In this document: piece by piece, positions 1-53,799 of the stretch
How the letters are laid out: each line of letters begins with the position of its first letter
Position numbering within the stretch: the stretch's first letter is position 1
From: a virus
Taxonomy: Duplodnaviria; Heunggongvirae; Uroviricota; Caudoviricetes
DNA length: 64,000 nucleotides
Virus record (IMG/VR): IMGVR_UViG_2721755711_000002
Reading direction: 5' to 3' (one strand)
Translations under genes and position numbers: made by a program
Notes under the pieces: model-generated
Database searches by the model: none
Seen by the model: only the letters and a program-made list of their open reading frames with translations
What the model was told of the DNA's origin: nothing

Positions 1-307
1 TCAGGACGTTGCGTGATGCCAGCAGAATATTAAAATCATCCGGCGTCATGTTGTCGTGTAACAGCTCCGCCGTCAGTTCTTCCTGCGGAATATCCCCCAG
101 ACGGACCAGCGTTGCCGCCATCACCGCACAGCGGTAGTAATAATCCGCCGCGAAGCCATCCACCGTCTGAAAGCGTTCTTCAGTTTCTTCCAGTGCCTGC
201 CCGTTATCACGCATGACCGGCAGACGCAGCTCAAAGTTTTTATGAACGGTGCCGTTAAACACCACGCCATCAGACAGCTCGCCGGTCTGTGTATTAATCA
301 AAGTCAT
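1..307 (-). CDS. phage tail assembly protein-like, partial (continues beyond window start)
   Basis: Minus-strand reading frame opens at ATG 307..305, overlapping the tube gene stop (ATGA coupling), with no stop before position 1; sits after sheath and tube as in Mu-like tail clusters. Confidence 0.4.
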   Translation of the reverse strand, partial: MTLINTQTGELSDGVVFNGTVHKNFELRLPVMRDNGQALEETEERFQTVDGFAADYYYRCAVMAATLVRLGDIPQEELTAELLHDNMTPDDFNILLASRNVL

Positions 308-678
308 CCTGTCACCTTCCTGAGTGCAGCCATTTTGATATCAATTTTCGCTTCATTATCGACGGTGTATTTCTCACCCACTTCGGTTGTGAAGCAGTCC
401 AGATAGGAGGTGCGCTTGCCGCTGTTGCTGAGCGGATAAATTGAGATTTTCACACCTTCCAGATTTTCCCAGTCCGGCTCGTTGGTATCAGGGATAACCG
501 CCGAAACTGAAATATCGTAGGTGGCAATGCCACGGGCAAAGCCTTTGGCCCTGCCGGTTTTGTTCATGGTCTTGACCAGCTTTCGTCCGGTGTTGATCTG
601 AACATCAAAGTCGGTGATCTCGATTTCCTGGCTGTCCACCTCCAGCACAATCGAGCCGACATATTCTTTAATGGACAT
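304..678 (-). CDS. phage tail tube protein (Mu gpM-like)
   Basis: 124 aa ORF immediately downstream of the sheath gene; size and position typical of a myovirus tail tube. Confidence 0.65.
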   Translation of the reverse strand: MSIKEYVGSIVLEVDSQEIEITDFDVQINTGRKLVKTMNKTGRAKGFARGIATYDISVSAVIPDTNEPDWENLEGVKISIYPLSNSGKRTSYLDCFTTEVGEKYTVDNEAKIDIKMAALRKVTG

Positions 679-690
679 TTACCGCGCTCC

Positions 691-2112
691 TTACAAAATC
701 ATGTCGATGCGACCGGCAAACACATGCAGGCCGTTAACCACATCCGCCGGAACCACGCAGTCGAGACGGTTTGCATCTTTCCCGTTTCGCTGAACGCGCA
801 GCTTTGCCTTGTTCGCTTCCACGTTCTCCAGAATTTCCGCTTCCTCCAGCTTGATCAGCACGTCATACAGTTCGCTTTCCACTTTTGCGATAGTGCGGGT
901 GCTGAGTTTTTCGCGCGGGAAGCGAAGGCTGATGCGTTCGCGGCACGCCTTGCGGGTGTAATCCAGCGTTCTGATGGACGTGATATCCAGTAACGAGACG
1001 TCAGTCACGCCCTGTGCGTTAACCGTGTACGTACTGACCGCACGCACAATCTGCACCGTGTTACCCGGGCCAACCTCAACCGGCGTCAGGCCGTTATGCA
1101 GGGCGTTTTCCTGCTCGTTACGGCTTTCACGCTGTGACATTGCGACCACATCCAGCCCGGACAGCGCCAGCGAGTTCAGCGGACGCGCCGGGTCTTCCTC
1201 GCCCGCCATCACAGCGCCGTAGATGGCAGCCAGCACCGCTGGCAGCTTCACGGAGCCGCGATACCAGGGGACAGACACGCGCCCACTGTTCACACCGGCG
1301 GCCAGGGTGATCCCGTTTCCGAGACTGCCCGTCCAGCCTGCACAGCCAATCGCGCCGCGCTGTTCCATCGCGTTCCCGGTTTTCTCCAGATGCTGCTTCA
1401 GGGCGGCAAGGGCTGGCGTGGTACTGAACGGACAAATCAGAATGTTGTGACCGGCGGCAAAGACCGCATCCAGTGCGGGCTGAATATCCGGGTCCATTTC
1501 GCCGTTCGCCATCGGCGTGGCGCTCACGGTCAGACCGCCTGCCGTGGTGGATGCTGACAGGGTGATATCATTCCCCCAGGCACCTTTGGTCCGGGTGGTG
1601 ACCGTCAGCTGAGAGGTTTCTGATTTGTATTCCCCCGTCACCAGAAGCGAGGGCGTCTGCGTCATTGCTTCCACCAGTGCCGGAATGATTTTCGACGGTC
1701 CATCACCGGTTTCCACATCCACCGAAACCTGCTCACCGGCAACCCATACCGACAGTGTGCCGCTGCTGATTGCCGTACCGCTGACAGTAACCGCACCGGT
1801 TGCTGCCTTTCCTGCGCCACTGTCTGCAATACCGATAACATCCAGTTGCAGATAGCTGTTGGCATTAATGGCCGCGCGCGCCATTGCAGCGGCCAGCGAA
1901 CCGGCCCCGAAATACAAATCCGCTTCGTCTTCGGAATACACAGAAACGGCATTCAGGGGCCTGGCGGTGCCGCCTGACAGCATCGGGCCAATCACCAGAA
2001 CACGCTGTTCGTTACCCGGCAGCGTGTTAACGGCGAGCCGGGTATTGAACTCAAAATGCACACCGGGCTTACGGATGCCGCCCGAAATGGTGTCAAACTG
2101 AATTTCACTCAT
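691..2112 (-). CDS. phage tail sheath protein (Mu gpL-like)
   Basis: 473 aa ORF followed by a tube-sized gene; position after gp36/gp37-like genes as in Mu. Confidence 0.75.
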   Translation of the reverse strand: MSEIQFDTISGGIRKPGVHFEFNTRLAVNTLPGNEQRVLVIGPMLSGGTARPLNAVSVYSEDEADLYFGAGSLAAAMARAAINANSYLQLDVIGIADSGAGKAATGAVTVSGTAISSGTLSVWVAGEQVSVDVETGDGPSKIIPALVEAMTQTPSLLVTGEYKSETSQLTVTTRTKGAWGNDITLSASTTAGGLTVSATPMANGEMDPDIQPALDAVFAAGHNILICPFSTTPALAALKQHLEKTGNAMEQRGAIGCAGWTGSLGNGITLAAGVNSGRVSVPWYRGSVKLPAVLAAIYGAVMAGEEDPARPLNSLALSGLDVVAMSQRESRNEQENALHNGLTPVEVGPGNTVQIVRAVSTYTVNAQGVTDVSLLDITSIRTLDYTRKACRERISLRFPREKLSTRTIAKVESELYDVLIKLEEAEILENVEANKAKLRVQRNGKDANRLDCVVPADVVNGLHVFAGRIDMIL

Positions 2113-2347
2113 CGGAATCCACCTGTTTCTCTCTCTTCGCCTTCGCTTTTACCTGCACGGCGTCCTGTTCAGCCGTCACGATAGTTTCAGGCTCATCCTT
2201 CACCAGAATCAGGTCACCGTCCTGAACGGCTCGCCGGTAATAAACGGTGTTCTCAACGGTCACAACTTCCGTGGTGATGTATTTCCGGGCGTTATCCTCC
2301 ATCGGGAACTTCATCCCGGGAGCCGCCTTAACCTTCATTTTGTTCAT
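2105..2347 (-). CDS. small phage protein (DUF2635-like) upstream of sheath
   Basis: 80 aa ORF overlapping the sheath start; conserved position in Mu-like late operons. Confidence 0.45.
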   Translation of the reverse strand: MNKMKVKAAPGMKFPMEDNARKYITTEVVTVENTVYYRRAVQDGDLILVKDEPETIVTAEQDAVQVKAKAKREKQVDSDE

Positions 2348-2924
2348 GCTGTTGCTCTCTTAATTCAGTCAGCCCTGATATTTCAGCGTCGCTGTCCTGC
2401 ATCTGGTACCGGATGCCAAGGTTCAGCAGCTCCGGGTCAAGGTCTGACAGCCTGCCGTGGTAGCGGTTGAAGAGGCGGTCCGCTTCTGCGCCACGCTCCG
2501 GCCATTTGCCGTTCTCCAGCGCGTGCTCCACCCAGCGGGTATCGAACTCACAGGCAAACACGGACATTGCCCGCTCTGCCACGCCGGTGTTAAACAGCGT
2601 CCTGACCCGCCCGGGTTCGAAATAATCAATCTCCAGCCCCAAATCCTGACCGGTCAGCAGGCGACGGACGGATTCAACCAGCTGGTTTGTCCCGACCTCA
2701 TCCCGGACGGTGCCTCCCTGTCTGGCGCTCTGTTCGCTGCGGGTGTTGTAATCACCCACCACAACCACAAAGCGTCCGGTGGCAATGTATTTCCGGCGTG
2801 ACGTGGAATAGCGTTCGGTTTTCACGATGCCGCCGAACGTCACCCAGGCTGCCGGAAGGCTGCGAACAATCCGGCCCGGATCTTCATCCAGTTCACCGGC
2901 ATAGGTGCGGACATCCTGCACCAT
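2328..2924 (-). CDS. Mu gp37-like virion protein (DUF1834-like); start uncertain
   Basis: Six-frame ORF 2328..3065 extends into the IS element. Upstream of the insertion point the native frame hits a stop with no canonical start codon, so the first native ATG (2924) is proposed as start. Confidence 0.45.
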   Translation of the reverse strand: MVQDVRTYAGELDEDPGRIVRSLPAAWVTFGGIVKTERYSTSRRKYIATGRFVVVVGDYNTRSEQSARQGGTVRDEVGTNQLVESVRRLLTGQDLGLEIDYFEPGRVRTLFNTGVAERAMSVFACEFDTRWVEHALENGKWPERGAEADRLFNRYHGRLSDLDPELLNLGIRYQMQDSDAEISGLTELREQQHEQNEG

Positions 2925-3030
2925 ATGCCCCAGACCACAGCGCAGACGCTCAACCAGCGCCCGTTCAATTTCAGTAATCAGAATGCACTGAACCGCCCCG
3001 GGTTTCCTGGAGAGTGTTTTATCTGTGAAC

Positions 3031-3922
3031 TCAGGCTGCCAGATCATCGTTTCCGATGGAAGCATAATAAGCTTTTTCTGCTTCTGCCGGTGGGATATGG
3101 CCCAGCCTTTCCAGCAATCGTCGATTGTTATACCAGTCCACCCACGTGAGTGTGGACAGCTCCACTTCTGTCCGGTTTTTCCAGCGCTTACGGTGTATTA
3201 CCTCCGCTTTGTAAAGGCCATTGATGCTTCTCCGCCATCGCGTTGTCATACGAGTCACCAGTACTCCCTGTTGATGCCAGTAAGCCGGCTTCCTTAAGCC
3301 GCTGCGTGTAGGCCAGCGATACATACTGAGAACCTTTATCACTGTGGTGGATTGTGCCGGACGGCCGACGGGCCCACAACGCCTGCTCCAGTGCATCCAG
3401 CACGAATGCCGTTTCCATGGATGATGAGACCCGCCATCCCACGATGTATCCGGCGAACACATCAATGATGAACGCCACATAAACGAAGCCCTGCCATGTG
3501 TTTACCCAGGTAAAATCAGCCACCCACAACTGGTCAGGACGTTCTGCCACGAACTGACGGTTTACGCGGTCGCATGCGGCAACGGCTTTCCGGCTGACGG
3601 TAGTGCGGACCTTTTTACCCCGGAGAACACCGGCAAGTCCCATAACCGCCATGAGACGTGCCACAGTGCATCTGGCCACTCTGATACCTTCCCGTAACAA
3701 CTGACGCCAGACTTTACGCACACCGTATACCTGGTGATTTTCATCGTATACGCGCTGTATCTCTTTCTTCAGCCAGTCATCGCGCTGCGCACGGGCACTG
3801 CGTTTATCAGGATGATGTCGCTGTTGCTGACAGTGGTAATACGTTGACGGGGCAATATGCAGTTCGCTGCATACCGGTCCGACCCCGTACTGCTCACGCA
3901 GCTTATCCAGCAGTGGCATCAT
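3031..3922 (-). pseudogene. IS3-family transposase OrfB (DDE catalytic subunit), disrupted by frameshift
   Basis: OrfB homology is split across two frames (3188..3922 and 3031..3480). The break is near 3228 where the sequence reads gag aag cat, versus gag agc atc expected for ...AMAESINGLYK..., consistent with a 1 bp insertion. Confidence 0.7.
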
Positions 3923-4245
3923 TTTTTCCAGAGGCGGTCGAACTCCGCCTTCGCAAAATAAGCGGAAGCCTGGCGAAGGATATCGTTACTGCGGCGCAGT
4001 TCACGATTTTCACGTTCCAGCTCTTTCAGACGCTGACGTTCAGCGGTGGTGAGCCCACCATCACCGCCCCCGGTATCCCGCTCATGCTGGCGAACCCAGA
4101 CACGCAGAGTCTCCGGCGTACAGCCAATTTTTGGGGCAATGGAACAAATTGCCGCCCACTGTGAATCATACTCATCCTGACTTTCCAGAACCATACGAAT
4201 CGCTCGCTGACGGACTTCGGGGGAAAAACGAGTATTTTTAGTCAT
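3919..4245 (-). CDS. IS3-family transposase OrfA (HTH DNA-binding subunit)
   Basis: 108 aa protein [22 protein letters not shown]... matches remembered IS629/IS1203 OrfA; SD GAGAAAGAGG upstream. Confidence 0.85.
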
Positions 4246-4270
4246 CCTGTTTACCTCTTTCTCAGGGAGT

Positions 4271-4723
4271 TTAGTCTCCAGGATTCCCGGGACGGTTCAC
4301 ACCTCCCCGCGTGGACTCACGCCCGAACTGACGGGAGCCGGAGCGGATACGCACCTGTGACGATGACTGGATCACACTGCCGGACGTATCCCGCCCGAGG
4401 TTGATTTGTCCTGCCGCGACTTTCTCCAGAAAGCGGATGGCGTCCCGGTAGCGCATCTGAATTTCTTCTGAGCAGATACGGTAATCGGTCGCCAGGTGAT
4501 AACGGGCGATATCGCAGCAGTAACCCACCAGAATCCCCGGGCTGTCAGGCCACGGGGTCCGGTAACGCCCCACCAGATAGCCATCAATCTGGGCACTGGC
4601 GCGTGCAAGCGCGGAGGCCAGCTTTTCTTCGTCGATGAATCCCGTCATGTCTTCATCCGTCAGTGTGCGTGCCTCGCGTTCACTGAACGCCCTGATGAAC
4701 TGTTCCGGTGTGGCGTAAGACAT
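4271..4723 (-). CDS. Mu gp36-like virion protein (DUF1320-like), C-terminus altered by IS insertion
   Basis: 150 aa ORF; its last 9 codons are encoded by the duplicated target and IS terminal sequence. Reconstructing the uninterrupted sequence gives a native ...STRGGAF stop ending. Confidence 0.5.
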
Positions 4724-4726
4724 GGG

Positions 4727-5056
4727 TTACTTCTCCTTTTTGTCCGCTTTTTTTGTTTTCTGTGCGGCGGTCAGTTCACTGACTTTCTGGCGTTCTTCTT
4801 CCAGTTGCGCCGTCAGTTCGCTGACTTTCTGACGCTCGGCATCCAGCTGTGCGGCCAGCTCATCACCCCGGGCCGCGTCGTTCTGGCCGGACGCTTTATC
4901 GCGCTCCACCACAATCAGCATGGGGTCAGCCTTCAGCACCGCCAGCTGTTCCGGGGTGAACGCATCCGCAGGCCATTCCTTCGTGGTTGCGCTGTGTGCC
5001 ACACCGCAGCGGCGAAAACCCTCACGGCGGGCGGTAATTTCAATCACCTTTTCCAT
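4727..5056 (-). CDS. small phage head-region protein (Mu gp35-like)
   Basis: 109 aa ORF between major head and gp36-like genes; coiled-coil repeat (QKVSELTAQLEEERQKVSELTA). Confidence 0.4.
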   Translation of the reverse strand: MEKVIEITARREGFRRCGVAHSATTKEWPADAFTPEQLAVLKADPMLIVVERDKASGQNDAARGDELAAQLDAERQKVSELTAQLEEERQKVSELTAAQKTKKADKKEK

Positions 5057-5059
5057 GCA

Positions 5060-6010
5060 TTACTCCGTCGTACCATCAGAACCAAATGCCATCTGCCAGA
5101 AGCCGTAACCGCCGTTACAGCGCGCTTCGGCACCAAACAGGAACTTCTTACGCTTGAACACGTTGTCGCTGTTGTAGTCCGTCTGCTCCACAAAAACAGG
5201 CTTTTTACGCAGCTGATAAATCAGCGGTTTCACCGGTTTGGTGGTGTCAAACAGGAACCACGCAGAATCCGACGCCAGCTCCGGCATCACCAGCACTTCG
5301 GCGGTATTGCGGTACGGGTTCGGCGTGCCGTCCGGGAACTTCTCGGCGGTCATCAGGTAGTTCGCGTCATCCTCCAGCGCCGGTGGCACAACCAGCAGAT
5401 TCGGGCGAATTTTGAGGGATGCGCCTTCGTCATCTTTCAGACTACGCATGGCCGTACGGGCGGCACCGTAGGAGGCTTTCGCCTCGGCAAGCGAGCCAAC
5501 TTTGAGTTTTTTGGTGCCTTTGTTGGACACCGATTTACCGGCGACCAGGTGGTCGGTATCAAAGAACATCTGACCGTCGTAACATGGATTGGTAAAACCG
5601 TTACTGATAAGGGACGCCACAATATCTGCCGGTAGCTCTGCTGCCGACTGTCCGGCTCCTTTCGCCTGAAGGGCATAGCCCATAATCTGGTCGTCCTCGA
5701 TGTCGTTACGATCGACTTCAACCGTGGCTTCCCAGTCCTTGTTACGGATGGTGTAGTTAAATGCCGCCAGTGATTTGACGACCTTGTCACCAATCCACTC
5801 GCGCATTTTCGGGAAACGACTTAACCAGCTGTAGTCGTTCTCCTTGCCGTTTGATGGCACTTCCATTGCCACCTTCTGCCAGTCAGTTGGTGACTGGTCG
5901 AAGGCTTTCTGGAAGGTGGCCTTCAGATTGATAAAAATCTGTTTGACGTTTTTAACGTTGACTAACACGTTTTGCTCCTTAACTGAAATGAACCCAGACG
6001 CCATCGTCAC
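5060..6010 (-). CDS. major head subunit (Mu gpT-like)
   Basis: 316 aa ORF in the position of Mu T, downstream of protease/scaffold and DUF2190-like genes. Confidence 0.7.
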   Translation of the reverse strand: MTMASGFISVKEQNVLVNVKNVKQIFINLKATFQKAFDQSPTDWQKVAMEVPSNGKENDYSWLSRFPKMREWIGDKVVKSLAAFNYTIRNKDWEATVEVDRNDIEDDQIMGYALQAKGAGQSAAELPADIVASLISNGFTNPCYDGQMFFDTDHLVAGKSVSNKGTKKLKVGSLAEAKASYGAARTAMRSLKDDEGASLKIRPNLLVVPPALEDDANYLMTAEKFPDGTPNPYRNTAEVLVMPELASDSAWFLFDTTKPVKPLIYQLRKKPVFVEQTDYNSDNVFKRKKFLFGAEARCNGGYGFWQMAFGSDGTTE

Positions 6011-6374
6011 CGATGCCGATCACTTTCCCGGCGACAGGGCGGGCGCTGCTGTTGTCGGTTTTCGCCACGGTCACGCTGTCTTCCACGTAGCATTCTTTAC
6101 CAACCTGCGATTGCGTGACCGGGTCTGAGGTGCTGTTCGCCATCAGAAAGGCTTTGCCGCAACGCACCAGAACGGTGGCGTCGCCATCGCTGCCCTTGCT
6201 GTTATCCACCCAGCCATCAGACACGCCCAGCGTAATCTGTGAGGCCGTGGCACTGGCCGGAACGGCATAACCGGATGCGTTAACGGCCACCATATGGCCG
6301 CCAAAAATTTCGGTCGCAGCGGCAACCGGCACCGGGTTCAGCTCGCCGTCACGGTAGGGGGTATTGCGATCCAT
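5979..6374 (-). CDS. phage head protein (DUF2190-like)
   Basis: 131 aa Gly/Ser/Val-rich ORF between protease/scaffold and major head genes, as in Mu-like phages. Confidence 0.45.
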   Translation of the reverse strand: MDRNTPYRDGELNPVPVAAATEIFGGHMVAVNASGYAVPASATASQITLGVSDGWVDNSKGSDGDATVLVRCGKAFLMANSTSDPVTQSQVGKECYVEDSVTVAKTDNSSARPVAGKVIGIGDDGVWVHFS

Positions 6375-7544
6375 TTACTCATCTCCTGCGTAACGGGCGA
6401 CATCCTCTGGATCAACGCCCATCATGGAACAAATGGCGATATCGACATCGACGTCATCGCCGGTTTTAATCTGCGCCGGGGCAGGCGACGGCGTTTTGGG
6501 TGGCTTGCCGCCGGTCTGGGTCTGACTGAGCGCAACAAGTTTCGGCGCGTTCTCCAGCCAGGACTTAAAGCCGTTGATATCGCGGCTGGCGTAATCTTTC
6601 GCCCAGTCTTCCTGCGCCGGAAGCAGTCGCCCGTCAGACAGCGCCGCCTGAATCAGTGCCCCGGCTTCGGCCTCACCGGACTGTTGCGCCAGTGCGGCAT
6701 AACGTCCCTGAAGTTCTTCATATGCCGTCAGAGGGATATGCTTCGTCGGGTCATAGGCACTGGCTGACAGGCTGGCGATTTGCTCGTCTTTCTGATTCAG
6801 CAGGGTCAGCAGGCTGACGGATGCCGCCGCCGTTCCCTGACCGTTCGAAATCATGTCAACGACCTTTTGCAGCTCGTTTTTGATATCTTCCGCCGTTGAG
6901 GTAACCGGGAGGTTAAGCATCCAGCGCAGGCTGGACAGCAAATCGTTTAACAGTTCTTCATCCACTGTTGTGGTCTCCGTTTCAGTTGACAGACTCGCCA
7001 GACGGCTGGCCGCAGCCAGCATGACTGCATCCATACCGTCCAGCGCCGGGGTATTGGTCAGCGCAGCGTGTAACAGCTCCAGCACTTCGCCGCGCTTGTT
7101 GTAGGCAAAAACAGGGGAAATAAACTTGTACTCACCGGCGGCAATCATGGCCGCCGCGTTATCCGTCCACTCCACACCGGTGGCATACAGGCCCGCACCT
7201 TCTCGCCATTCCACCTGGCTGAACCAGCCCGCCGCCGGGGCGGGCTTGCCGTTGTTTACGGCGCGCAGCGTCTGATGTTCGTAATCAATGACAAAAGGCG
7301 TGGTACGGGCGGCCACCTGCGCGACAAGCTGCGCGGCCAGTTCAGCGGTCAGCACCCATTTACCGCTTTCGACTTCATCGGTATGTGGGCGACCATCCAC
7401 CGCGCTGAACTCGCCCGCCGGAAACAGCTGGATTTCGCTGTGGGTTGCTTTAGTAATTTCGAGGCTTAATGCCGCAATGTTCAGTTTCATACGCGGCATG
7501 ATGACGGAAGGGGAACACGGGGTACTGTGGAGGGTGTTCAGCAC
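6375..7544 (-). CDS. prohead protease / scaffold protein (Mu gpI-like); start uncertain
   Basis: 389 aa ORF between virion morphogenesis G-like and head genes; acidic C-terminus. Confidence 0.6.
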   Translation of the reverse strand: MLNTLHSTPCSPSVIMPRMKLNIAALSLEITKATHSEIQLFPAGEFSAVDGRPHTDEVESGKWVLTAELAAQLVAQVAARTTPFVIDYEHQTLRAVNNGKPAPAAGWFSQVEWREGAGLYATGVEWTDNAAAMIAAGEYKFISPVFAYNKRGEVLELLHAALTNTPALDGMDAVMLAAASRLASLSTETETTTVDEELLNDLLSSLRWMLNLPVTSTAEDIKNELQKVVDMISNGQGTAAASVSLLTLLNQKDEQIASLSASAYDPTKHIPLTAYEELQGRYAALAQQSGEAEAGALIQAALSDGRLLPAQEDWAKDYASRDINGFKSWLENAPKLVALSQTQTGGKPPKTPSPAPAQIKTGDDVDVDIAICSMMGVDPEDVARYAGDE

Positions 7545-7699
7545 CCTGCCATAACGGGAAAAGATAAAAGAGGAAATAAAACCGTTTTTAAAACCCTTTT
7601 AAAAACGATTCTGACAGCATTTACGGGGTGCAGTGCTGTAATGACTCATCCGTGAGGCGTTTATGTTGTCACAGGCGATTACAGCGCGTTTGTGGCCAT

Positions 7700-8251
7700 T
7701 CAGTCAATCACACGCGCAAAATAGCGGTTTGCGGTGTTCTCCAGCTCGTCGATGTCGTCCTGCACAAGCTGAAGGAAGGGACGCGCGGGCATGTTGACCG
7801 TATACGCTCCGACCGTTGCGCTCTGCACAAAATTACTGTTGCGCTTTTTCACAAAGCGGGTACTGACGCTGCCGTTTTTGTACTGTTTAAAATACAGGTT
7901 CTGCGTCCGTGCCTGATGGCGGATTTCGCCGCCTTCGTTGTGGATACGGGCATAACGAACGTTTGTCCCGACCGTGGCCTCGTTATTGTTAACCGCAGAG
8001 CGGATACTGGCAGCCAGTCGCCCTGACTTCTGAAGGATTTGCCCGGGACCGCGTCGCTTCGCATAAGCCGGACTCCAGCCCATCCATTTCGGGCGACCCT
8101 GTTGTTCAAAGTTAGTCTCAACCGCATCCAGCATGGAACCCGCAAGTGCCGCCATCAGGTCGCGCCGGTCCTTCACGGAACGAATCAGTTTCCCCAGCGT
8201 GGTGTTATACGCGCTTAAATCAATCTTAATATCCAGTTTACCGTCGCTCAT
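7700..8251 (-). CDS. virion morphogenesis protein (Mu gpG-like)
   Basis: 183 aa ORF immediately downstream of the F-like head morphogenesis gene. Confidence 0.6.
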   Translation of the reverse strand: MSDGKLDIKIDLSAYNTTLGKLIRSVKDRRDLMAALAGSMLDAVETNFEQQGRPKWMGWSPAYAKRRGPGQILQKSGRLAASIRSAVNNNEATVGTNVRYARIHNEGGEIRHQARTQNLYFKQYKNGSVSTRFVKKRNSNFVQSATVGAYTVNMPARPFLQLVQDDIDELENTANRYFARVID

Positions 8252-9414
8252 GATGCCTCCGGGGTGTCCTGCATAACCCAGCCTGTCAGCACGTCATCCT
8301 CAACCGTCGCCACTGACCAGCGGTCGCCCGACTGTAACGCATACCGCCACGCGTTGCCGTCCTGCGTGACATGCTCCGCCCGTTCGATGGTCTGCTGCAT
8401 CAGCACATAGTCGGCGGCGGTCGGGGGCGTGTCTGTTGCACTGAGGCGCTTCATGACGTCAGCCGTAAGGTTTACCGTCTGCCGTGCAGCGCCCGTGGCG
8501 GCGACCTGTTCCGGTGAACGGATGGCCAGCGGATATCGCTGGCGCGCATCCAGTTCGCTGACGTTCGCCAGTCCCCGGGCAAAATCCGGCCCGGTCAGGG
8601 TGCCGGTGACATACTGGCGGGCGCTGCGGTAATCATATTTTTCCAGTTCCGGCTGCCATGCCACCCGACCGGGATTAAATCCGAAGCCCGGGTCGGCGGT
8701 ATACACGGAGCCGTCCGGCATCTTCAGCCCCATTGTTCTGATGGTCTGGCCCGGCTGGCCATATTCCTGCTCAACCTCAACCAGTCGCCCCTCGCTGCTC
8801 TGCACCGTCAGGCCGTATTTCTCCACATCAGACGCCGAACGCGCCCGGATACGGCAGCGGCAGTGATAACCGTCCGGGGTGTATAAAAACTCCCAGACCG
8901 GGTCATCCGCCCGGGCGGTAAAACCGTTCAGGGCGGCGTGTTTCGGACGGGTGTGAAGGTCCATCACTGCCACGCGTTCAAAATAAGGCCGATCAGCCAC
9001 GTTCGCCATCTGTTGTTGATAACGCCCGGCGTTATATGACGACTGAATGTTGGTATCAAATATCGTGCGTAACCGGCGCGGCGTCAGTTGTCTGCCATGC
9101 AGTTCGCCGGTGTCCTCGTCCACAATCAGTTTTTTACCCAGCCAGCCTTTTGATTCCAGCAGTGGTTCCAGTTGTGCAGCAAACTCCCGGAACGTCCCGC
9201 CGTCAGCCAGTGCCGCCGTCAGGCCATCACGGACATCCTTCAGAACATCCAGTTTCAGCACACCCGCCACCGTGAACGCCCGGGCGTTGGCGATGTCCTT
9301 CACATCGTGCCAGCGGAAGCCGATAACGTACCCCTTGCTTTCGAAATACTTGATCGCTTCTTCCGGTTTCAGGGTGTACGCATAACCCAGGTCAACATCG
9401 TCAGCTGTCGGCAT
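8248..9414 (-). CDS. head morphogenesis protein (Mu gpF / gp30-like)
   Basis: 388 aa ORF overlapping the portal gene end; conserved portal-then-F order. Confidence 0.7.
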   Translation of the reverse strand: MPTADDVDLGYAYTLKPEEAIKYFESKGYVIGFRWHDVKDIANARAFTVAGVLKLDVLKDVRDGLTAALADGGTFREFAAQLEPLLESKGWLGKKLIVDEDTGELHGRQLTPRRLRTIFDTNIQSSYNAGRYQQQMANVADRPYFERVAVMDLHTRPKHAALNGFTARADDPVWEFLYTPDGYHCRCRIRARSASDVEKYGLTVQSSEGRLVEVEQEYGQPGQTIRTMGLKMPDGSVYTADPGFGFNPGRVAWQPELEKYDYRSARQYVTGTLTGPDFARGLANVSELDARQRYPLAIRSPEQVAATGAARQTVNLTADVMKRLSATDTPPTAADYVLMQQTIERAEHVTQDGNAWRYALQSGDRWSVATVEDDVLTGWVMQDTPEAS

Positions 9415-10996
9415 TCAGTCGCCCCCAGATATCCGCCACAAAGAATGCCTGCGTCAGCAACTGCCGCAGCGTGTCATCCGGCAGCTCCGGCCATGCTTCC
9501 GCCAGTACGTTCATGGCCTCGTCTGCATCCCGGCCTTCCTGTATGGCCTGCACCAGTGGGGCCACCAGTTCGTTCATCCCCTGCGCGATGGCCTCTGCCG
9601 GAAGCTCTGCCCGGTCGATGGTGCACTGTGCCGGGTCGTCCTCCCCGTTGTCCTGCTGACTGAGTACAGCAACATTCAGCCGCTCCCTGTGCTGGCTGAG
9701 GCCCGCCTGCGCAGGGAGACGCTGTGCCACTGGTACCAGTACCTCTTCGCCGTCTTTCGGGGTGGGGATACCGGTTTTTTTACGTACCCACGACACCGGG
9801 ATATCCTTCATCCCCACGTTATTGACCAGTATGCTGATGGCTTCCGCCACGCCCTTAATATCAGACTCCTGCTGTACATCGAATACCAGACGTGGCAGAC
9901 GACGAACCGGGATATCCTTCCAGCCATTCAGGCTGGCCATCATCTGGATCAGACTGCTGAACATGCCGGACAACTGGCGGGCATCGGCGGCCAGAATATC
10001 GTGACGGACCTCGTTGTGGATCACACCCAGCGCATTGGTGGAGGTTTTACCGTCTGCCTGTGTGGTTAACGTGCTGCCAAGAATGGCTTTTGAGGTGGTC
10101 CGCTCTGCCCAGTCCACCATCGCCATAAAGGCCTCCGGTCCGCCTGATGCGGCCTCCTTGAATTCAATCTCGTTACCCTGCGGCAGGGCTGCCACCGCTT
10201 CATGGCCCAGATTGACCAGGGCTTCGAGAATGTTGTCCCGGTCTTCGTCACTGGTGCCCTGTGCATAGTACGCAATACGCGCCGGAAGGCCGTAAATCTC
10301 CAGGAATTCCGCCATATCACGCAGCGCAAAGTTTTTGAACAGATACGGCCAGACCAGTACGCGGAACAGGCCGGATGAACCCAGGAGCCCCGACCGGGCG
10401 TTGTAACGGTGAACCAGCCAGCCGAACGGCCACAGTGCGGAACCGTCCTTACCATCTTCCCCGCGACCGCCGTCATCCAGCCGGAGTTCGTCATTGTGTT
10501 CCGGCAGGGTTATGAACCAGTTATGCGGGCGCAGCGTCACCGCATCCGGTAACCACGTTTTATCCACGAACGCCCAGCTGATTTCCTGACAGCTGAAGCC
10601 GTAACCGACACTGCTCATCCCGTTGAGGATGATGTCCTCCATGTCCGGGATACCGTGCAGCCATTCATCCACGGCGGCGGCCAGCTCCTTTTCTGCCTTC
10701 GAGGCATTGCGGGGCGGCTCCACCGACCAGTCCAGCGTCAGCAACGCTTTTTTGCGCTTTTCCATCTCGGCGAACAGATGGCCATCACGTTCTTCCATAT
10801 CCGCAAACAGCATCGCCTGCGCCGGAAGATAACCGCGTTCGGCAGCTTCCAGAATGCGCGGTAGTTTTCTGATGTTCAGACCACGCGACGGGTGGTCGGG
10901 ATAAATGCGCAGCCGTTCTGCCACTCTGACCGACTGCGTGGTTTTGAGTGCCTCACGTTTCAGCGGGCGTCCGTAAATATCAACAAGCTGTGCCAT
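9401..10996 (-). CDS. portal protein (Mu gpH / DUF935-like)
   Basis: 531 aa ORF directly downstream of the terminase large subunit. Confidence 0.75.
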   Translation of the reverse strand: MAQLVDIYGRPLKREALKTTQSVRVAERLRIYPDHPSRGLNIRKLPRILEAAERGYLPAQAMLFADMEERDGHLFAEMEKRKKALLTLDWSVEPPRNASKAEKELAAAVDEWLHGIPDMEDIILNGMSSVGYGFSCQEISWAFVDKTWLPDAVTLRPHNWFITLPEHNDELRLDDGGRGEDGKDGSALWPFGWLVHRYNARSGLLGSSGLFRVLVWPYLFKNFALRDMAEFLEIYGLPARIAYYAQGTSDEDRDNILEALVNLGHEAVAALPQGNEIEFKEAASGGPEAFMAMVDWAERTTSKAILGSTLTTQADGKTSTNALGVIHNEVRHDILAADARQLSGMFSSLIQMMASLNGWKDIPVRRLPRLVFDVQQESDIKGVAEAISILVNNVGMKDIPVSWVRKKTGIPTPKDGEEVLVPVAQRLPAQAGLSQHRERLNVAVLSQQDNGEDDPAQCTIDRAELPAEAIAQGMNELVAPLVQAIQEGRDADEAMNVLAEAWPELPDDTLRQLLTQAFFVADIWGRLNADS

Positions 10997-10999
10997 TAA

Positions 11000-12703
11000 T
11001 TACCATCCTCCTGAACCAAAACGCCCGCCACGGTCACGCCCGCTGCTGCGTGGGGTGTGTATCTGAAATTTTGCGCTACGCGAAACCGCCAGCGTCCACA
11101 GCATGTGCAGACAGTCCGGGCCATCATCGTGGTCAGCTTTGGGGTAGTGGCGCAGCTGGTCAATCAGCGTCTGATGTGTGTGGCTGATACGAATCAGGCC
11201 GTTGGCCATATGCGGCTGAAGGGATTCGATACGCAGTGCCTTATCCTCCAGCGGGATGACCGGCAGCGCCGGAACCGGTACGCCCAGCGCCGCCGAACGC
11301 TCAACCAGCACGGTACGCAGAAACTCCTGAAACTGAACGGACTCAAACGACCAGCACAGACAGTGGTATTCCCGCTGATACTTGATCACGTCTTCGATAA
11401 TTTTATTCGGCAGACGTCGGCGGATATCGGCTTCAACCACATCCAGAATGCCGGTAAAGCGGTTAAAGCCCCCCACGAGAATGGCTGACGGGTCGCGGTT
11501 TTTATTCTTCTTCCCGAGACTGGGGTCAGCAGCACCATAAAACACCCATTCATCAAGACGGTTAACCCAGAACTTAATGCAGCCCGCAAACAGCGCGTCT
11601 TCACCGCTGACCGGGTCGTTCTGGTATTCAGAATCAAAGGTGTCGTGACCGTCACGGACACGAATTTTCATCAGTGCCAGCAGTGGACGCGCCGCCCATG
11701 ACACCACCGACCCGGCGAGCATGTCGGCTTCGTTCTGCTGATAAAGCGCCTCCGCCGCTTCCGGCTGTTTGTTGCGGATGAGTTCTTCCCACTCGTCCCA
11801 CAGCTTCATGTTGGCAGGCCACTGAATGACGGCCTTAAAACGGGCCGTTTTCCACATCGGGTTATTGAGTGTGCGCGACAGTACGGAGTCGTAATGCAGG
11901 ATGGTCCCGATATAAATAATATCGGTTTTACCGCCAGCCTCGCCCAGCGGCATCACGGTTTTGGTAAGCCAGTTATGCAGCTTGTCGCGCTGCTCCGGGT
12001 TACGCACCATCTCGTCGTTCTCGATGTCGTCGAGGATGACCAGGTCAGGACGGTACGGACCGTGGCGCAGACCACGCAGTTTTTTACCACTACCGGCAAC
12101 GGTCACCTTGATATTGTTGGCTGTGACGATGGTCCCCATACGCCAGACGCGACCCTGCCCACACACCTCCGGGAAATCGTTTTTTAAACGGGGGTTAAAT
12201 TCCAGTTCAGCCTTGATGGCTTCCAGCATCGGATAAGCCTGGTCGATACTGTCCATAATGATGACCGGATAATGCTTAATACCCCGGATAATGGTCCACA
12301 GGGTAAACAGCTGAGTCACCAGCGTGGATTTTGCTTCACCACGGGGCGCGGCGATGGCGTCGTTCTCCGGGTCCGGGCTTGCCACAACCTGTGGCAGACG
12401 GGTGAACAGGTATTTATGCAGCTCACTTTTTGCCGGGTTGCGGACGTAGTGCGGGAAATAGTTTTCGACAAAATAATCGTAGCCCGTCACCGGGTCGCAG
12501 ACTGCCGCCCGGCGGGCCTGTGTGGCCTGCGGGTTAACATCGAACCCCAGACATTCAGCCTCAATGGTCTGGCGGAGGTTGGCGATGTACTCCTGCAGGC
12601 TTCTCTGAAACTCTTTAATGGAAAGTTTACGTTTACGTTTTGCCACGTCACACCTGCGCTGTTTCTGCCTGCGCTTTTTCGATACGTGCGCAGGCGATAT
12701 CAA
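11000..12703 (-). CDS. terminase large subunit (Mu gp28-like)
   Basis: 567 aa ORF preceding portal; N-terminal basic segment; start may be internal because the ORF overlaps the methyltransferase gene end. Confidence 0.75.
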   Translation of the reverse strand: MISPAHVSKKRRQKQRRCDVAKRKRKLSIKEFQRSLQEYIANLRQTIEAECLGFDVNPQATQARRAAVCDPVTGYDYFVENYFPHYVRNPAKSELHKYLFTRLPQVVASPDPENDAIAAPRGEAKSTLVTQLFTLWTIIRGIKHYPVIIMDSIDQAYPMLEAIKAELEFNPRLKNDFPEVCGQGRVWRMGTIVTANNIKVTVAGSGKKLRGLRHGPYRPDLVILDDIENDEMVRNPEQRDKLHNWLTKTVMPLGEAGGKTDIIYIGTILHYDSVLSRTLNNPMWKTARFKAVIQWPANMKLWDEWEELIRNKQPEAAEALYQQNEADMLAGSVVSWAARPLLALMKIRVRDGHDTFDSEYQNDPVSGEDALFAGCIKFWVNRLDEWVFYGAADPSLGKKNKNRDPSAILVGGFNRFTGILDVVEADIRRRLPNKIIEDVIKYQREYHCLCWSFESVQFQEFLRTVLVERSAALGVPVPALPVIPLEDKALRIESLQPHMANGLIRISHTHQTLIDQLRHYPKADHDDGPDCLHMLWTLAVSRSAKFQIHTPRSSGRDRGGRFGSGGW

Positions 12704-19516: not shown

Positions 19517-19545
19517 ATATACAAATAAAATTAAAAACAGACTTA

Positions 19546-20091
19546 TTAACTACGACGTTCAGTTTTCCGGTAATGGCGGTCAACAGATTTAACGAACGCC
19601 TTCACATCACGGGAAATCGAATCCAGCGGATAATATTTATCCAGCAGTTCCATTCCGCTGAATCGAATCTGAAAAAAATCAGGCTTATCTTTATATGACT
19701 CCATCAGGTCAATAAACCGCAGCTGACGCGGGAGGGATTCCTGCACGCCTGAAATAGTGAGCAAATCATCTTCAAGGATATATGCGAGGTCTTCCATATC
19801 CTTACAGTCAGACATCATGGATATTCTTGTCAGTATGTTCCGTGTGGCGATATACAGCGCGGCTGTGTCATTCGCCATCATGGCGAACAAATCCCCCTGA
19901 ATATAAGCCCCCTTACTGGCCATAGCATTCCCGGCAATCTGCGCATCAAGTACCACATACATAAAATCGCCAGGTGCACCCAGATGGCCCAGCAATGATG
20001 ACGCCCATAACGTTACATTGGTTAACTTCCCAGATGAACGGACAGCAAAACCTTCAGGAGTAACAATAAATTCCCAGACTTTATCTTTCAT
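19546..20091 (-). CDS. hypothetical accessory protein
   Basis: 181 aa from ATG 20091 (SD AAGGGGA); preceded by hairpin motif copy 2; no recognisable catalytic motif. Confidence 0.45.
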   Translation of the reverse strand: MKDKVWEFIVTPEGFAVRSSGKLTNVTLWASSLLGHLGAPGDFMYVVLDAQIAGNAMASKGAYIQGDLFAMMANDTAALYIATRNILTRISMMSDCKDMEDLAYILEDDLLTISGVQESLPRQLRFIDLMESYKDKPDFFQIRFSGMELLDKYYPLDSISRDVKAFVKSVDRHYRKTERRS

Positions 20092-20105
20092 ATACAAATC
20101 CCCTT

Positions 20106-20135
20106 AATTCAGGCGCAGACCTGTTTACCTGCGCC
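20106..20135 (-). repeat. conserved hairpin motif, copy 2
   Basis: AATTCAGGCGCAGACCTGTTTACCTGCGCC; 7 bp stem GGCGCAG/CTGCGCC, followed on the minus strand by TGAAT, SD and ATG of gene 19546..20091. Confidence 0.55.
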
Positions 20136-20155
20136 ATAAAAAAACGAAGTCAGAG

Positions 20156-20548
20156 TTAAAAATCGAAGACGTCAGTTAATTCCCGCTTCAGTGAAACGCA
20201 CTCAGAATAAAAGCCCTCGCTCTCACCGCACCATCTGACGACTACACAGCCTTTTGATGTGCCGAACTTAAAGAAACTCCATGTCTGATGACCTTCCCCA
20301 ACATCACATTCTTCGGTAACCACTTCAGCCTCTGTCAGCGGTTCATCTTTCAGGTCGTCAAGGTCTCCGACGATGTCCTCAATCCAGACTTTTTCGCAGC
20401 CTTCCTGAAAGTGGAAAAATGTAAACACGGTTCCCCATACTCCCCGGGAATAATCACCACGAAAAACAAGTTCATCGTTTTCATTCTTAACTACTTCTTT
20501 AAATGTACGCCCGAGCATTTCATTGATAACGGTAACACTCATTTTCAT
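20156..20548 (-). CDS. hypothetical Cys-rich accessory protein
   Basis: 130 aa; preceded by hairpin motif copy 3 and GGAG SD. Confidence 0.45.
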   Translation of the reverse strand: MKMSVTVINEMLGRTFKEVVKNENDELVFRGDYSRGVWGTVFTFFHFQEGCEKVWIEDIVGDLDDLKDEPLTEAEVVTEECDVGEGHQTWSFFKFGTSKGCVVVRWCGESEGFYSECVSLKRELTDVFDF

Positions 20549-20555
20549 TTCTCCA

Positions 20556-26479: not shown

Positions 26480-26755
26480 TTGATCACTACCCCACAGGTA
26501 ACAGAAGACGGTCGTCATGTTGAGGAAGTGCATGTCCTGGGGGATATGTACCGCCTGGAGTTCTATCCGCGTAACACTCATCTTGCAGCGAAGATTGAGT
26601 ATTGCCGGGACGGGAATATTCCGTGCATTCCTGTAGAAAAAGAGGATGAAGCCTACATCATCACACTGAACGGTGACACGGCGCGTTGTATCTGTCGTGG
26701 CGACAGTGAAGCCCGGAATGAAATAGCAAGATGTCGCGCCCATACAGATAAATAA
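26480..26755 (+). CDS. hypothetical ORF, possibly a 3' gene fragment truncated by the Mu-like insertion
   Basis: ORF begins only with a TTG call immediately outside the Mu-like end, without a convincing SD; followed by a strong terminator. Confidence 0.25.
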   Translation: MITTPQVTEDGRHVEEVHVLGDMYRLEFYPRNTHLAAKIEYCRDGNIPCIPVEKEDEAYIITLNGDTARCICRGDSEARNEIARCRAHTDK

Positions 26756-48590: not shown

Positions 48591-49226
48591 ATGTCTGTAT
48601 TAATTTCGGGTGTGCTGACGGATGGCGCGGGACTCCCCATGTCCGGATACCATATTATTCTGAAAGCCAGACAGAATACATCCGCAGTGGTCATGAGAAC
48701 GGTGGCTACAGTGATGACAGGTCCGGCAGGAGAATATGCTTTTGAAGCTCAGACCGGAAAATATGACGTTTATCTTCGGTCGTGTATTGAAAGGGAATAC
48801 TGTGTCGGTGATATTTCGGTTTACGACGACTCAAAGCCCGGCACGCTGAACGACTTTTTGACCGCTCTCGACGAAGGCGACCTCAAACCCGACGTGGTGA
48901 AACGCTTTGAGGAAATGGTGGCGCAGGCGCAGCAGGGTGCCGAAACTGCAACAGAAAGCGAACGACAGGCAGGGCAACATGCAGACGCTGCCGCCCGGGC
49001 AAAAGAAGATGTAAAAAAACTGGTGGAAGGTGTTCAGCAGAACGCCGACGCGGTTGCGGAGGGTAAACAACAGGCCGAAACTCTGGTCTCACAGGTTGAG
49101 GATACCGCCGCAGAGGTCAGGCAGGATGCTGAAGCCGCGAAAAAGGCCGCATCTGATGCAGAGCATGTCAGGGAGGATATTGACACTGCGTTATCTGCGA
49201 CACTGAAAACGGCGAATCGCCTGTAA
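48591..49226 (+). CDS. side tail fibre N-terminal domain protein (Stf N-terminal fragment)
   Basis: 211 aa; ...ISGVLTDGAGLPMSGYHIILKAR...GKYDVYL...VYDDSKPGTLNDFLTA...PDVVKRFEEMV... parallels remembered lambda Stf N-terminus; stop codon lies in the junction core. Confidence 0.6.
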   Translation: MSVLISGVLTDGAGLPMSGYHIILKARQNTSAVVMRTVATVMTGPAGEYAFEAQTGKYDVYLRSCIEREYCVGDISVYDDSKPGTLNDFLTALDEGDLKPDVVKRFEEMVAQAQQGAETATESERQAGQHADAAARAKEDVKKLVEGVQQNADAVAEGKQQAETLVSQVEDTAAEVRQDAEAAKKAASDAEHVREDIDTALSATLKTANRL

Positions 49227-49271
49227 ACGATTCGCCGTTTTCAGTGTCGCAGATAACGCAGTATCAATATC
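49176..49271. repeat. near-palindromic junction: 44 bp inverted arms (35 bp perfect, then one mismatch) around an asymmetric 8 bp core CCTGTAAA
   Basis: 49188..49219 is the exact reverse complement of 49228..49259; arms continue as roughly 630 bp diverged inverted homologs (the two Stf N-terminal genes). Confidence 0.9.
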
Positions 49272-49856
49272 TGCTCTGGCCTGCTCTGCACCGGATGCGG
49301 CCTTTTTCGCGGCTTCAGCATCCTGCCTGACCTCCGCGGCGGTATCCTCAACCCGTGAGGCCAGATTTTCGGCCTGTTGTTTACCCTCCGCAACCGCGTC
49401 GGCGTTCTGCTGAACACCTTCCGCCAGTTTTTTTACCTCTTCTTTTGCCCGGGCGGCAGCGTCTGCATGTTGCCCTGCCTGTCGTTCACTTTCTGTTGCA
49501 GTTTCCGCGCTCTGCTGCGCCTGCGCCACCATTTCCTCAAAACGTTTCACCACGTCGGGCTTGAGGTCGCCTTCATCGGGGGCGGTCAGAAAATCATTCA
49601 GTGTGCCGGGCTTTGAGTCGTCGTATACAGCAATATCTCCAACACAGTACTCGTCGCGCCAGCCCTGCTTCAGATATACGCAGTATTTTCCGGTCTGCGC
49701 CTCAAAACAGTACTCGCCACAGTTTCCTGTCACCACGTCGGCAACTGTGCGCATCACCACCTCTGAGGTGTTTACCCGGGATTTCAGAATTATGTGGCAT
49801 CCGGACATGGGGATGCCTGCGCCATCAATCAGCGCACCTGATATCACTACAGACAT
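49191..49856 (-). CDS. side tail fibre N-terminal domain protein (second, diverged Stf N-terminal fragment)
   Basis: 221 aa, similar along its whole length to 48591..49226 (roughly 85 to 90 percent by eye); reads through the junction core and ends 10 codons into the opposite arm. Confidence 0.6.
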   Translation of the reverse strand: MSVVISGALIDGAGIPMSGCHIILKSRVNTSEVVMRTVADVVTGNCGEYCFEAQTGKYCVYLKQGWRDEYCVGDIAVYDDSKPGTLNDFLTAPDEGDLKPDVVKRFEEMVAQAQQSAETATESERQAGQHADAAARAKEEVKKLAEGVQQNADAVAEGKQQAENLASRVEDTAAEVRQDAEAAKKAASGAEQARADIDTALSATLKTANRLQAIRRFQCRR

Positions 49857-49879
49857 AGTTTTTCTCGCGATAAATTAAA

Positions 49880-50428
49880 TCAGGAAGAGGCTTCCGGAGA
49901 GACGGGCCATTCAATGGCGTTATATGAGGCTTTATCAGTGATGGTGCTGAAATCCATCGCCTGCAGCGATTTCGCGTAAATGCGGTACGCTTTCAGCTTT
50001 TCCCTGTCTTCGTCGCTGATTAATCCCAGCAGCAGGTCTTTTTCCCATTCGCTGGTCATGATACTGACCTGTTTTAACAGGGCATCACGCTCGTCTTCCG
50101 CTTTAAGTTTGTAGTCGAAAACAAATTCATCATTGCGGTAAAACCAGTAGCCTGATGCTTCAATGCGACGATTAGCGGTAATATCCGGCAACTCAATCAC
50201 GCTTTTATTTTCCGGGCAGATTGAGGTGATGTCTTTTCCGACCCAGACCACTTCGCCAGTTTTAACATAAATAACTTTCAGGGTGTCTGGTAGAAATTTT
50301 TCCTGGGCTTCGTGCCATTCCTGTCCATCATCTGAGAACAGCCACAATAAAAATTTATGCTGTCGCGCCAGCTGGTATTGCTCAATTGTTTTAGGGTTTT
50401 GTACCGTAATATTTTTTAAGTGCATCAT
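49880..50428 (-). CDS. tail fibre assembly chaperone (Tfa-like)
   Basis: 182 aa; C-terminus ...SYNAIEWPVSP; directly downstream of fibre gene. Confidence 0.8.
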   Translation of the reverse strand: MMHLKNITVQNPKTIEQYQLARQHKFLLWLFSDDGQEWHEAQEKFLPDTLKVIYVKTGEVVWVGKDITSICPENKSVIELPDITANRRIEASGYWFYRNDEFVFDYKLKAEDERDALLKQVSIMTSEWEKDLLLGLISDEDREKLKAYRIYAKSLQAMDFSTITDKASYNAIEWPVSPEASS

Positions 50429-50430
50429 GA

Positions 50431-53757: not shown

Positions 53758-53767
53758 ATCTACCCCA

Positions 53768-53792
53768 TAAAAAAACCGCCGAAGCGGTTTTA
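53768..53792 (-). terminator. bidirectional rho-independent terminator after cargo gene
   Basis: ACCGCC GAAG CGGT hairpin flanked by A-run and T-run. Confidence 0.55.
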
Positions 53793-53799
53793 AGTTAAC

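Follow-up and report, generated by a model that had tools for sequence, protein, structure and literature searches.

An IS629-group insertion with a frameshifted transposase gene at the gp36/gp37 junction of a Mu-like prophage

Results

The element and its family

The stretch of DNA analysed here (64 kb; hereafter, the window) begins within a Mu-like prophage. Its late operon is read on the minus strand and is interrupted, between the genes for a gp36-like head-tail adaptor and a gp37-like tail terminator, by an insertion sequence (IS) lying in the same orientation as the operon. The features of the locus are collected in Table 1.

Table 1. Features at and around the insertion, with window coordinates
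Feature	Position	Strand	Remarks
Tail tube-like gene	304-678	-	operon genes downstream of the IS span 304-2347
Tail sheath gene	691-2112	-	
DUF2635/gp38-like gene	2105-2347	-	
gp37-like tail-terminator gene	2328-2981	-	intact, 217 aa from CTG start; Phage_Mu_Gp37, E 2e-48
Mechanical ORF running in frame from the IS into gp37	2328-3065	-	ATG in IS right end; 28 extra N-terminal residues; weak ribosome-binding site, -1.9 kcal/mol
Target-site duplication, copy 1	2986-2988	.	CAC on +, GTG on coding strand
IS3-family, IS629-type insertion sequence	2989-4299	-	1311 bp = 1310 bp + 1 inserted base
Right inverted repeat (IRR), orfB-distal end	2989-3013	+	TGAACCGCCCCGGGTTTCCTGGAGA; TG...CA termini
Stranded C-terminal 65 codons of orfB, original frame	3031-3227	-	SINGLYKAEV...GNDDLAA*; includes conserved K at E+7
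orfB, current reading	3188-3922	-	244 aa: 231 native residues (D136, D195, E231), then 13 out-of-frame (KHQWPLQSGGNTP)
1-bp insertion site	3228-3229	.	TT on + where intact copies have T; IS strand GAGAAGC vs GAGAGC
ALIL pseudoknot (Rfam RF01497), stimulator of programmed -1 frameshifting	3848-3964	-	full-length match, 121.5 bits (gathering score 50)
orfA	3919-4245	-	108 aa, intact; HTH_Tnp_1 (PF01527); ORF listing, Pfam
gp36-like head-tail adaptor gene, chimeric	4271-4723	-	Phage_Mu_Gp36, E 5e-33
Left inverted repeat (IRL), orfA-proximal end	4275-4299	-	TGAACCGTCCCGGGAATCCTGGAGA
Target-site duplication, copy 2	4300-4302	.	CAC

The two inverted repeats agree at 22 of 25 positions and give the element its ends, TGAACCG... 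and ...CGGTTCA. A search of the window with the terminal motif TGAACCG[C/T]CCCGGG[TT/AA]TCCTGGAGA returned exactly these two sites, where shuffled sequences lead one to expect none; by this search the window holds a single copy of an IS629-type element. The same two ends bound independent copies of the IS that have unrelated flanks. The length of 1311 bp, the imperfect terminal repeats with TG...CA ends and a 3-bp duplication of the target (CAC) all fall within what characterizes the IS3 family, that is, a size of ~ 1.2 to 1.55 kb and short target duplications of 3 to 4 bp.

Using megablast, we found the element in 4,258 of 5,426 complete Escherichia coli genomes, at a median of 4 places per genome. 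The closest intact copy (99.6% identity) is carried by plasmid pIncFIB of strain PapRG-04-4 and the next closest is 98.9% identical; both measure 1310 bp. Each of the best 25 full-length matches is likewise 1310 bp in its record and is annotated as an IS3 family transposase with a programmed frameshift and an 'AL1L pseudoknot'. More distant, but with more informative labels, are the pO157 copy of O157:H7 (94.9% identity), annotated 'IS3-like element IS1203 family', and a partial copy annotated 'IS629 family' (96.6% over 790 bp). By the ISfinder convention, isoforms share roughly at least 95% DNA identity. The sub-types of IS629 differ from each other by 4 to 5%, and IS1203 and IS3411 are treated as its isoforms (PMC3271280). 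Since an identity of 94.9% fits this spread, the name 'IS629-like' is correct. Judged by its sequence, the element belongs to the IS629/IS1203/IS3411 group of the IS3 family, and 'IS629-like', rather than a finer isoform name, is the right level of naming.

The uninterrupted site

Aligned without the IS, the flanks (window positions 2300-5000) match one genome, that of E. coli OkiPb01701, in two pieces that skip the element (97.8% identity). The uninterrupted site of OkiPb01701 reads ...AATCAGAATG-CAC-CTCCCCGCG... or, given with a different extent of context, ...CAGTAATCAGAATG CAC CTCCCCGCGTGG..., with only one CAC. Because the empty site has a single CAC, the two copies that flank the IS represent a genuine duplication of the target and are not coincidental; IS629 is known to generate duplications of 3 to 4 bp (PMC3271280). 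The IS together with its flanks had no match at a coverage of at least 80% among the 5,426 complete E. coli genomes, and the 29-mer that spans the left junction was missing from the GTDB species representatives.

The earlier note on this DNA had placed a 1311-bp IS629-like element of the IS3 family here, with a 3-bp CAC target duplication, and had described it as separating a gp36-like from a gp37-like gene in a Mu-like late operon. The ends and the homology confirm the element, the empty site of OkiPb01701 confirms the duplication, and Pfam matches and gene order agree with the identity of the two genes.

State of the Mu-like prophage

The prophage occupies positions 1-26496 and is cut by the start of the window, so that 26.5 kb are visible and the genes beyond the tube gene lie outside, as do the right end of the prophage and the 5-bp duplication in the host. 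Its end at 26496, ...CCCCACA, is common to the Mu-like prophage of strain E2348/69. A repressor, Ner, MuA and MuB, the regulator Mor, head and contractile-tail genes in the order known from Mu, and an end of the TG...CA type identify it as a Mu-like transposable prophage. The order of major head, gp35-like, gp36, gp37, gp38-like, sheath and tube genes matches that of the annotated prophages of OkiPb01701 and E2348/69, and Pfam identifies tail sheath domains downstream of the gp37-like gene. When the prophage was compared by megablast with the phage collection, no match to any isolated phage was obtained. The elements at this locus are nested in textbook fashion: the IS is inside the Mu-like prophage, which is itself inside another prophage.

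Each Mu-like coding sequence of E2348/69 that has a counterpart in the window aligned with it as one full-length HSP. This holds for the repressor, the Ner-like protein, the Mu transposase, the MuB-like AAA ATPase, Mor, the holins and the endolysin as well as for the terminase, portal, head morphogenesis protein, protease and major head protein. Full-length matches to E2348/69 were likewise obtained for gpT, Gp36, Gp37 and the sheath. Apart from the IS, no lesion was seen in the visible 26.5 kb. General decay was rejected as an explanation, since all matched genes are full length; the 'decaying prophage' of the earlier note is thus an overstatement, and 'hit once' is the better description of the prophage as far as it is visible.

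Consequences for gp36 and gp37

At the native junction, the adaptor gene ends GGA GGT GCA TTC TGA (...GGAF*), and it is within this GCA codon, between G and CA, that the IS entered. The gp36-like stop codon lies 5 nt downstream of the insertion point, and the CTG start codon of the gp37-like gene lies 4 nt downstream of it (7 nt with the IS in place). As a result, the last two native codons of the adaptor (AF) are replaced by nine codons encoded by the IS, with a stop 27 nt inside IRL. The annotated OkiPb01701 protein ends ...RGGAF*, as expected from the native ...GGAF ending that had been reconstructed earlier together with the loss of the last two codons. In Mu, the dodecameric head-tail adaptor is gp36, with a C-arm that reaches into the portal clip; the tail terminator, a hexamer, is gp37 (PMC11915804).

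The gp37-like reading frame itself is undamaged, and positions 2-148 of the Phage_Mu_Gp37 profile align to residues 2-150. In both relatives, OkiPb01701 and E2348/69, PGAP places the gp37 start at a non-canonical CTG that overlaps the gp36 stop (CTGA). No in-frame ATG, GTG or TTG is present between the upstream stop and this CTG. With the IS in between, 1.3 kb now separate the CTG from both the native GGAGG ribosome-binding site and the coupled gp36 stop. The native pairing with the anti-Shine-Dalgarno sequence within 22 nt of the start is predicted at -12.3 kcal/mol, the strongest among the 11 starts examined; after the insertion the value is -7.2 kcal/mol, and a GGGGCGG remains upstream of the CTG. 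Translation of gp37 would probably fall sharply. The ATG at 3065, from which the mechanical ORF of Table 1 enters gp37, is probably not used.

The downstream tail genes and polarity

The gp37, gp38-like, sheath and tube genes are closely packed, the first two pairs overlapping, and the genes downstream of gp37 carry moderate ribosome-binding sites of their own. Simple scans of positions 2000-5200 revealed no intrinsic-terminator-like site on the minus strand and, on either strand, no promoter of the sigma-70-like type, which is the type that the scan covers, as distinct from Mu-type C-dependent late promoters. The scans lend no support to a promoter reading outward from the IS or to intrinsic termination. 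Because the operon strand has no terminator-like hairpin, any polarity would be Rho-dependent. On general grounds, the long and mostly untranslated stretch of orfB plus gp37 would probably lower transcription of the gp38-like, sheath and tube genes by Rho-dependent polarity, and the tight packing of these genes with gp37 would worsen the termination. Genes I through N of Mu form one late transcription unit with a promoter upstream of I. If the late unit is the same here, the sheath and tube genes would be without a promoter of their own. Polarity of the IS on these two genes is plausible. Better supported is the local damage, namely an adaptor with an altered C-terminus and a gp37 deprived of its ribosome-binding site and of its stop/start coupling.

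It could be argued that the insertion is close to neutral for the phage. Transcripts would then read through the element, synthesis of gp37 would begin at the CTG or at an ATG within the element (3065 or 3047), the longer adaptor would work, and the prophage would be inducible and infectious. The shared orientation of IS and operon is in line with this, as are the lack of a terminator-like hairpin on the minus strand inside the element, the ORF that continues in frame from the IS into gp37, the downstream ribosome-binding sites and the intact remainder of the visible prophage; moreover, the residual GGGGCGG or the ATG at 3065 might permit some synthesis of gp37. However, the native CTG relies on an unusually strong ribosome-binding site and on the CTGA overlap, both of which are lost, and the ATG at 3065 is almost devoid of a ribosome-binding site. 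In addition, ~ 1.5 kb of poorly translated RNA would, from general knowledge, be a typical substrate of Rho, and the C-arm of the Mu adaptor makes structural contact with the portal (PMC11915804). Finally, an IS at the gp36/gp37 junction occurs in 0 of 5,426 complete E. coli genomes and thus shows no sign of having been tolerated and spread. We regard near-neutrality as unlikely and favor impaired gp37 translation and tail expression. In that case infectious virions would be unlikely to form; the genes for the repressor, Ner, MuA, MuB and Mor and those for lysis and the head are intact.

The transposase genes and the extra base in orfB

OrfA has the same sequence as in the two closest intact copies. 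The orfB frame starts at 3922 in the -1 phase relative to orfA and overlaps the orfA stop at GGAAAAAATGATG; the ALIL pseudoknot, which is likewise annotated in intact copies, covers both the A6 run and this overlap of the orfA stop with the orfB ATG. The layout of the two frames, with an A-rich slippery run followed by a downstream structure, is the one found in the IS3 family, and programmed frameshifting is predicted.

The orfB gene no longer reads through. In alignments to the two closest intact relatives we counted 4 and 13 substitutions and a single indel: at 3228/3229 the IS strand carries an additional A, seen as T on the plus strand. The extra base follows directly 3' of the codon for the catalytic glutamate E231 and changes the reading on the IS strand from GCG GAG AGC ATC to GCG GAG AAG CAT C, so that OrfB now stops at 3188. 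Thus OrfB is 244 aa long and has lost 65 native residues; the uninterrupted orfAB of an autonomous copy is lacking, and from the coordinates the OrfAB fusion would comprise about 352 aa, down from about 404 aa. A protein repaired in silico has D136, D195, E231 and K238, with 58 and 35 residues between the three acidic residues and the lysine seven positions after E231. From the motif spacing and the Pfam domains, we take this to be the DD(35)E-K signature of the IS3 family and of retroviral integrases. The helix-turn-helix (HTH) domain of OrfA together with the DD(35)E motif and the K at E+7 of repaired OrfB are those of an IS3-family transposase; the actual sequence is out-of-frame after E231. 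In Pfam searches, OrfB as it stands retains HTH_21 (PF13276) and rve (PF00665), whereas rve_3 and rve_2 match the repaired protein only. Compared by sequence with the PDB, OrfB had no match at an E-value of 0.01 or better.

This frameshift is private to the present copy. A 61-mer with the extra base had no exact match in 11,921 places of 5,039 E. coli records, and a 34-mer carrying it had none in the GTDB species representatives or the JGI metagenomes. Neither the chimeric gp36 nor the truncated OrfB nor the IS-gp37 fusion protein is on record. The allele rests on one assembly, and no second assembly of the locus was found in the collections searched. A sequencing or assembly error at 3228/3229 would make the IS an intact, active copy of 1310 bp, and both the privacy of the allele and the single assembly are compatible with such an error, the more so as a singleton indel inside a multicopy repeat sits in a classic spot for polishing errors. 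Against this, the context GAG-A-AGC amounts to the doubling of one A outside any long homopolymer, and a copy that had decayed recently would likewise carry a private mutation. A general indel error in the assembly is argued against by the absence of indels other than multiples of three in the 6.7 kb around the IS, relative to the 97 to 98% identical prophage of OkiPb01701, and by the full length of every matched Mu-like gene; relative to the 96 to 98% identical prophage of PapRG-04-4, isolated indels of 1 to 2 bp occur between annotated genes only. An erroneous base is in our judgment improbable, and we take the frameshift to be probably genuine.

That the whole IS might be a repeat misplaced into the prophage by the assembler, with no real insertion behind it, deserves little more than mention: IS629-type elements are multicopy and often break or mis-join short-read assemblies, but both junctions are base-precise at known IS termini, and the 3 bp that occur once in the empty site are perfectly duplicated here, which a mis-join would not bring about. 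For practical purposes a chimera is ruled out.

Mobility of the element

IS3-family elements move by copy-out-paste-in. We propose that the present element gained its extra A after, or during, insertion, and that the shortened OrfAB would lack the remainder of the catalytic core, including the K at E+7. As far as can be told from the sequence, this copy is very probably unable to transpose unless an intact sibling supplies OrfAB in trans. The ends, orfA and the frameshift pseudoknot are intact, and because of this the copy remains a substrate for complementation in trans.

Excision assisted by IEE and dependent on the transposase is very probably blocked in the same way when OrfAB is not provided in trans. 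According to a review summarising Kusumoto 2011, transposase-less IS1203v/IS629 cassettes flanked by the inverted repeats were excised when a second plasmid supplied OrfAB, and DDE mutants were inactive, IEE-enhanced excision needing a catalytically active DDE transposase (bioRxiv 10.1101/2023.06.07.543989). As excision requires the active enzyme, the insertion would be irreversible by the IEE route when no helper copy is present.

The earlier note had called the element likely immobile unless complemented in trans, on account of a 1-bp insertion near 3228 that frameshifts orfB, and had proposed alignment to reference IS629/IS1203 as a check. The insertion is indeed the sole indel relative to the 99.6% and 98.9% identical intact copies. 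Aligned with an O157 IS1203/IS629 copy, the element is 94.9% identical, and the view of mobility agrees with the IS1203v/IS629 experiments as described in that review (bioRxiv 10.1101/2023.06.07.543989).

At about 352 aa, the truncated OrfAB retains its HTH and multimerisation region as well as both aspartates, but not the C-terminal third of the catalytic core. One could imagine that it inhibits, in a trans-dominant manner, intact IS629-type copies of the same cell, with the locked insertion making the Mu-like prophage transposition-competent, tail-defective and kept by the host for immunity; we think this very improbable.

Discussion

With considerable confidence, we read the locus as follows: an element of the IS629 group entered a Mu-like prophage where gp36 and gp37 meet, duplicating CAC; its transposase gene is frameshifted, and gp37 translation and tail expression are probably impaired. 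The Mu-like prophage is predicted to yield no infectious particles, even though the genes for lysogeny, transposition, lysis and the head appear intact. An annotation of this DNA should show an IS3-family (IS629-type) element whose transposase is pseudogenised, an adaptor with an altered C-terminus, and a tail terminator that is intact but translationally orphaned.

The event is an ordinary one for E. coli genomes. IS629-group copies in prophage genes are commonplace, and pseudogenised IS copies are routine. That no other genome searched has an IS at this site, and that the allele is unique, characterizes this one event without making the element one of a new type. The importance of the finding is local, and it raises no new question on IS or phage biology.

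The element resembles IS629, IS1203 and IS3411 of E. coli and Shigella in most respects. It shares with them a length of 1310 bp (plus one here), the TGAACCG...CGGTTCA ends, the A6 run with the ALIL pseudoknot, an OrfA of 108 aa, identical or with one residue changed, and a 296-aa OrfB with DD(35)E (repaired here). The 3-bp target duplication and the preference for prophage DNA are also theirs (PMC3271280). It differs from the IS629/IS1203 copies in belonging to a sub-lineage of 98.9 to 99.6% identity that RefSeq labels only 'IS3 family transposase', and the frameshift after E231 is unique to the present copy among these relatives.

The insertion of an IS of this group within prophage DNA is reminiscent of O157:H7, where 62% of the IS629 copies in four O157 genomes sit in prophages or prophage-like elements (PMC3271280). 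The host here, however, is a Mu-like transposable prophage related to that of the EPEC strain E2348/69 (93% identity) and not a lambdoid phage of the Stx type. The two genes at the junction correspond, by Pfam matches and gene order, to the connector genes J (gp36, the adaptor) and K (gp37, the tail terminator) of phage Mu, the roles being those seen by cryo-EM of Mu (PMC11915804). In contrast to Mu itself, this Mu-like relative has a gp36 with a foreign nine-residue tail and a gp37 detached from its translation signals.

Three nested mobile elements

The Mu-like prophage ends at window position 26496, reading ...ACTACCCCACA, which is identical to the end of the related Mu-like prophage in E. 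coli E2348/69. At this position it directly adjoins a second prophage, in which it interrupts a small hypothetical gene directly past the GH108 endolysin gene. Since the Mu-like element thus lies within a gene of the second prophage, there are three nested mobile elements: the IS629-type element sits in the Mu-like prophage, which in turn sits in another prophage. Only one Mu-like end is visible; the other end and the 5-bp duplication fall outside the window.

Coordinates of the features discussed
Feature	Window	Related records
gp37-like CTG start context	2979-2985	L001 (E. coli OkiPb01701), 3679-3685; L004 (E2348/69), 7993-7999
Mu-like prophage end/second prophage junction	26490-26500	L007 (E. 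coli PapRG-04-4), 7978-8259
11.1-kb insert	38225-38236 (matching joint)	L007, 18644-29784
Inverted segments matching second-prophage tail-fibre region; third tail/baseplate region	49224-51216; 50000-64000	

Features of the Mu-like prophage

The gp37-like tail-terminator gene of this prophage family seems to use a non-canonical CTG as its start codon. This codon overlaps the gp36 stop as CTGA and is preceded by a very strong GGAGG, and no alternative ATG, GTG or TTG is present in frame. The start context points to a conserved dependence on translational coupling.

Approximately 1 kb of the semi-essential early region (window 19540-20554) is absent from the E2348/69 relative. The early genes beside it, at 58-88% identity, diverge far more than the late genes do, as is usual in mosaic genomes. 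The head-gene region (window 4300-12000) gave zero megablast matches among 50,697 deposited phage genomes; prophages related to the Mu-like prophage were found in ≈ 980 complete E. coli genomes.

The second prophage and the right part of the window

Stretches that match the second prophage's tail-fibre region recur in opposite orientation, and near 49.2 kb the DNA is either inverted or joins two prophages head to head. From ≈ 50 kb onward a further phage-like tail/baseplate region follows, the third in the window; it shares 94-98% identity with prophages of other E. coli, so that all 64 kb of the window is prophage DNA.

The second prophage combines a lambda-like head with a P2-like tail and is 97% identical to a prophage at the ompW-trp locus of PapRG-04-4. 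The latter carries an 11.1-kb insert with annotated genes for an integrase, an Icd-like protein, RepA helicase, SSB, major capsid protein, head decoration protein and small terminase; by gene content it resembles a capsid-forming phage satellite. The window copy lacks this insert, and at its joint the sequences that flank the insert overlap by 12 bp, possibly representing the attachment site.
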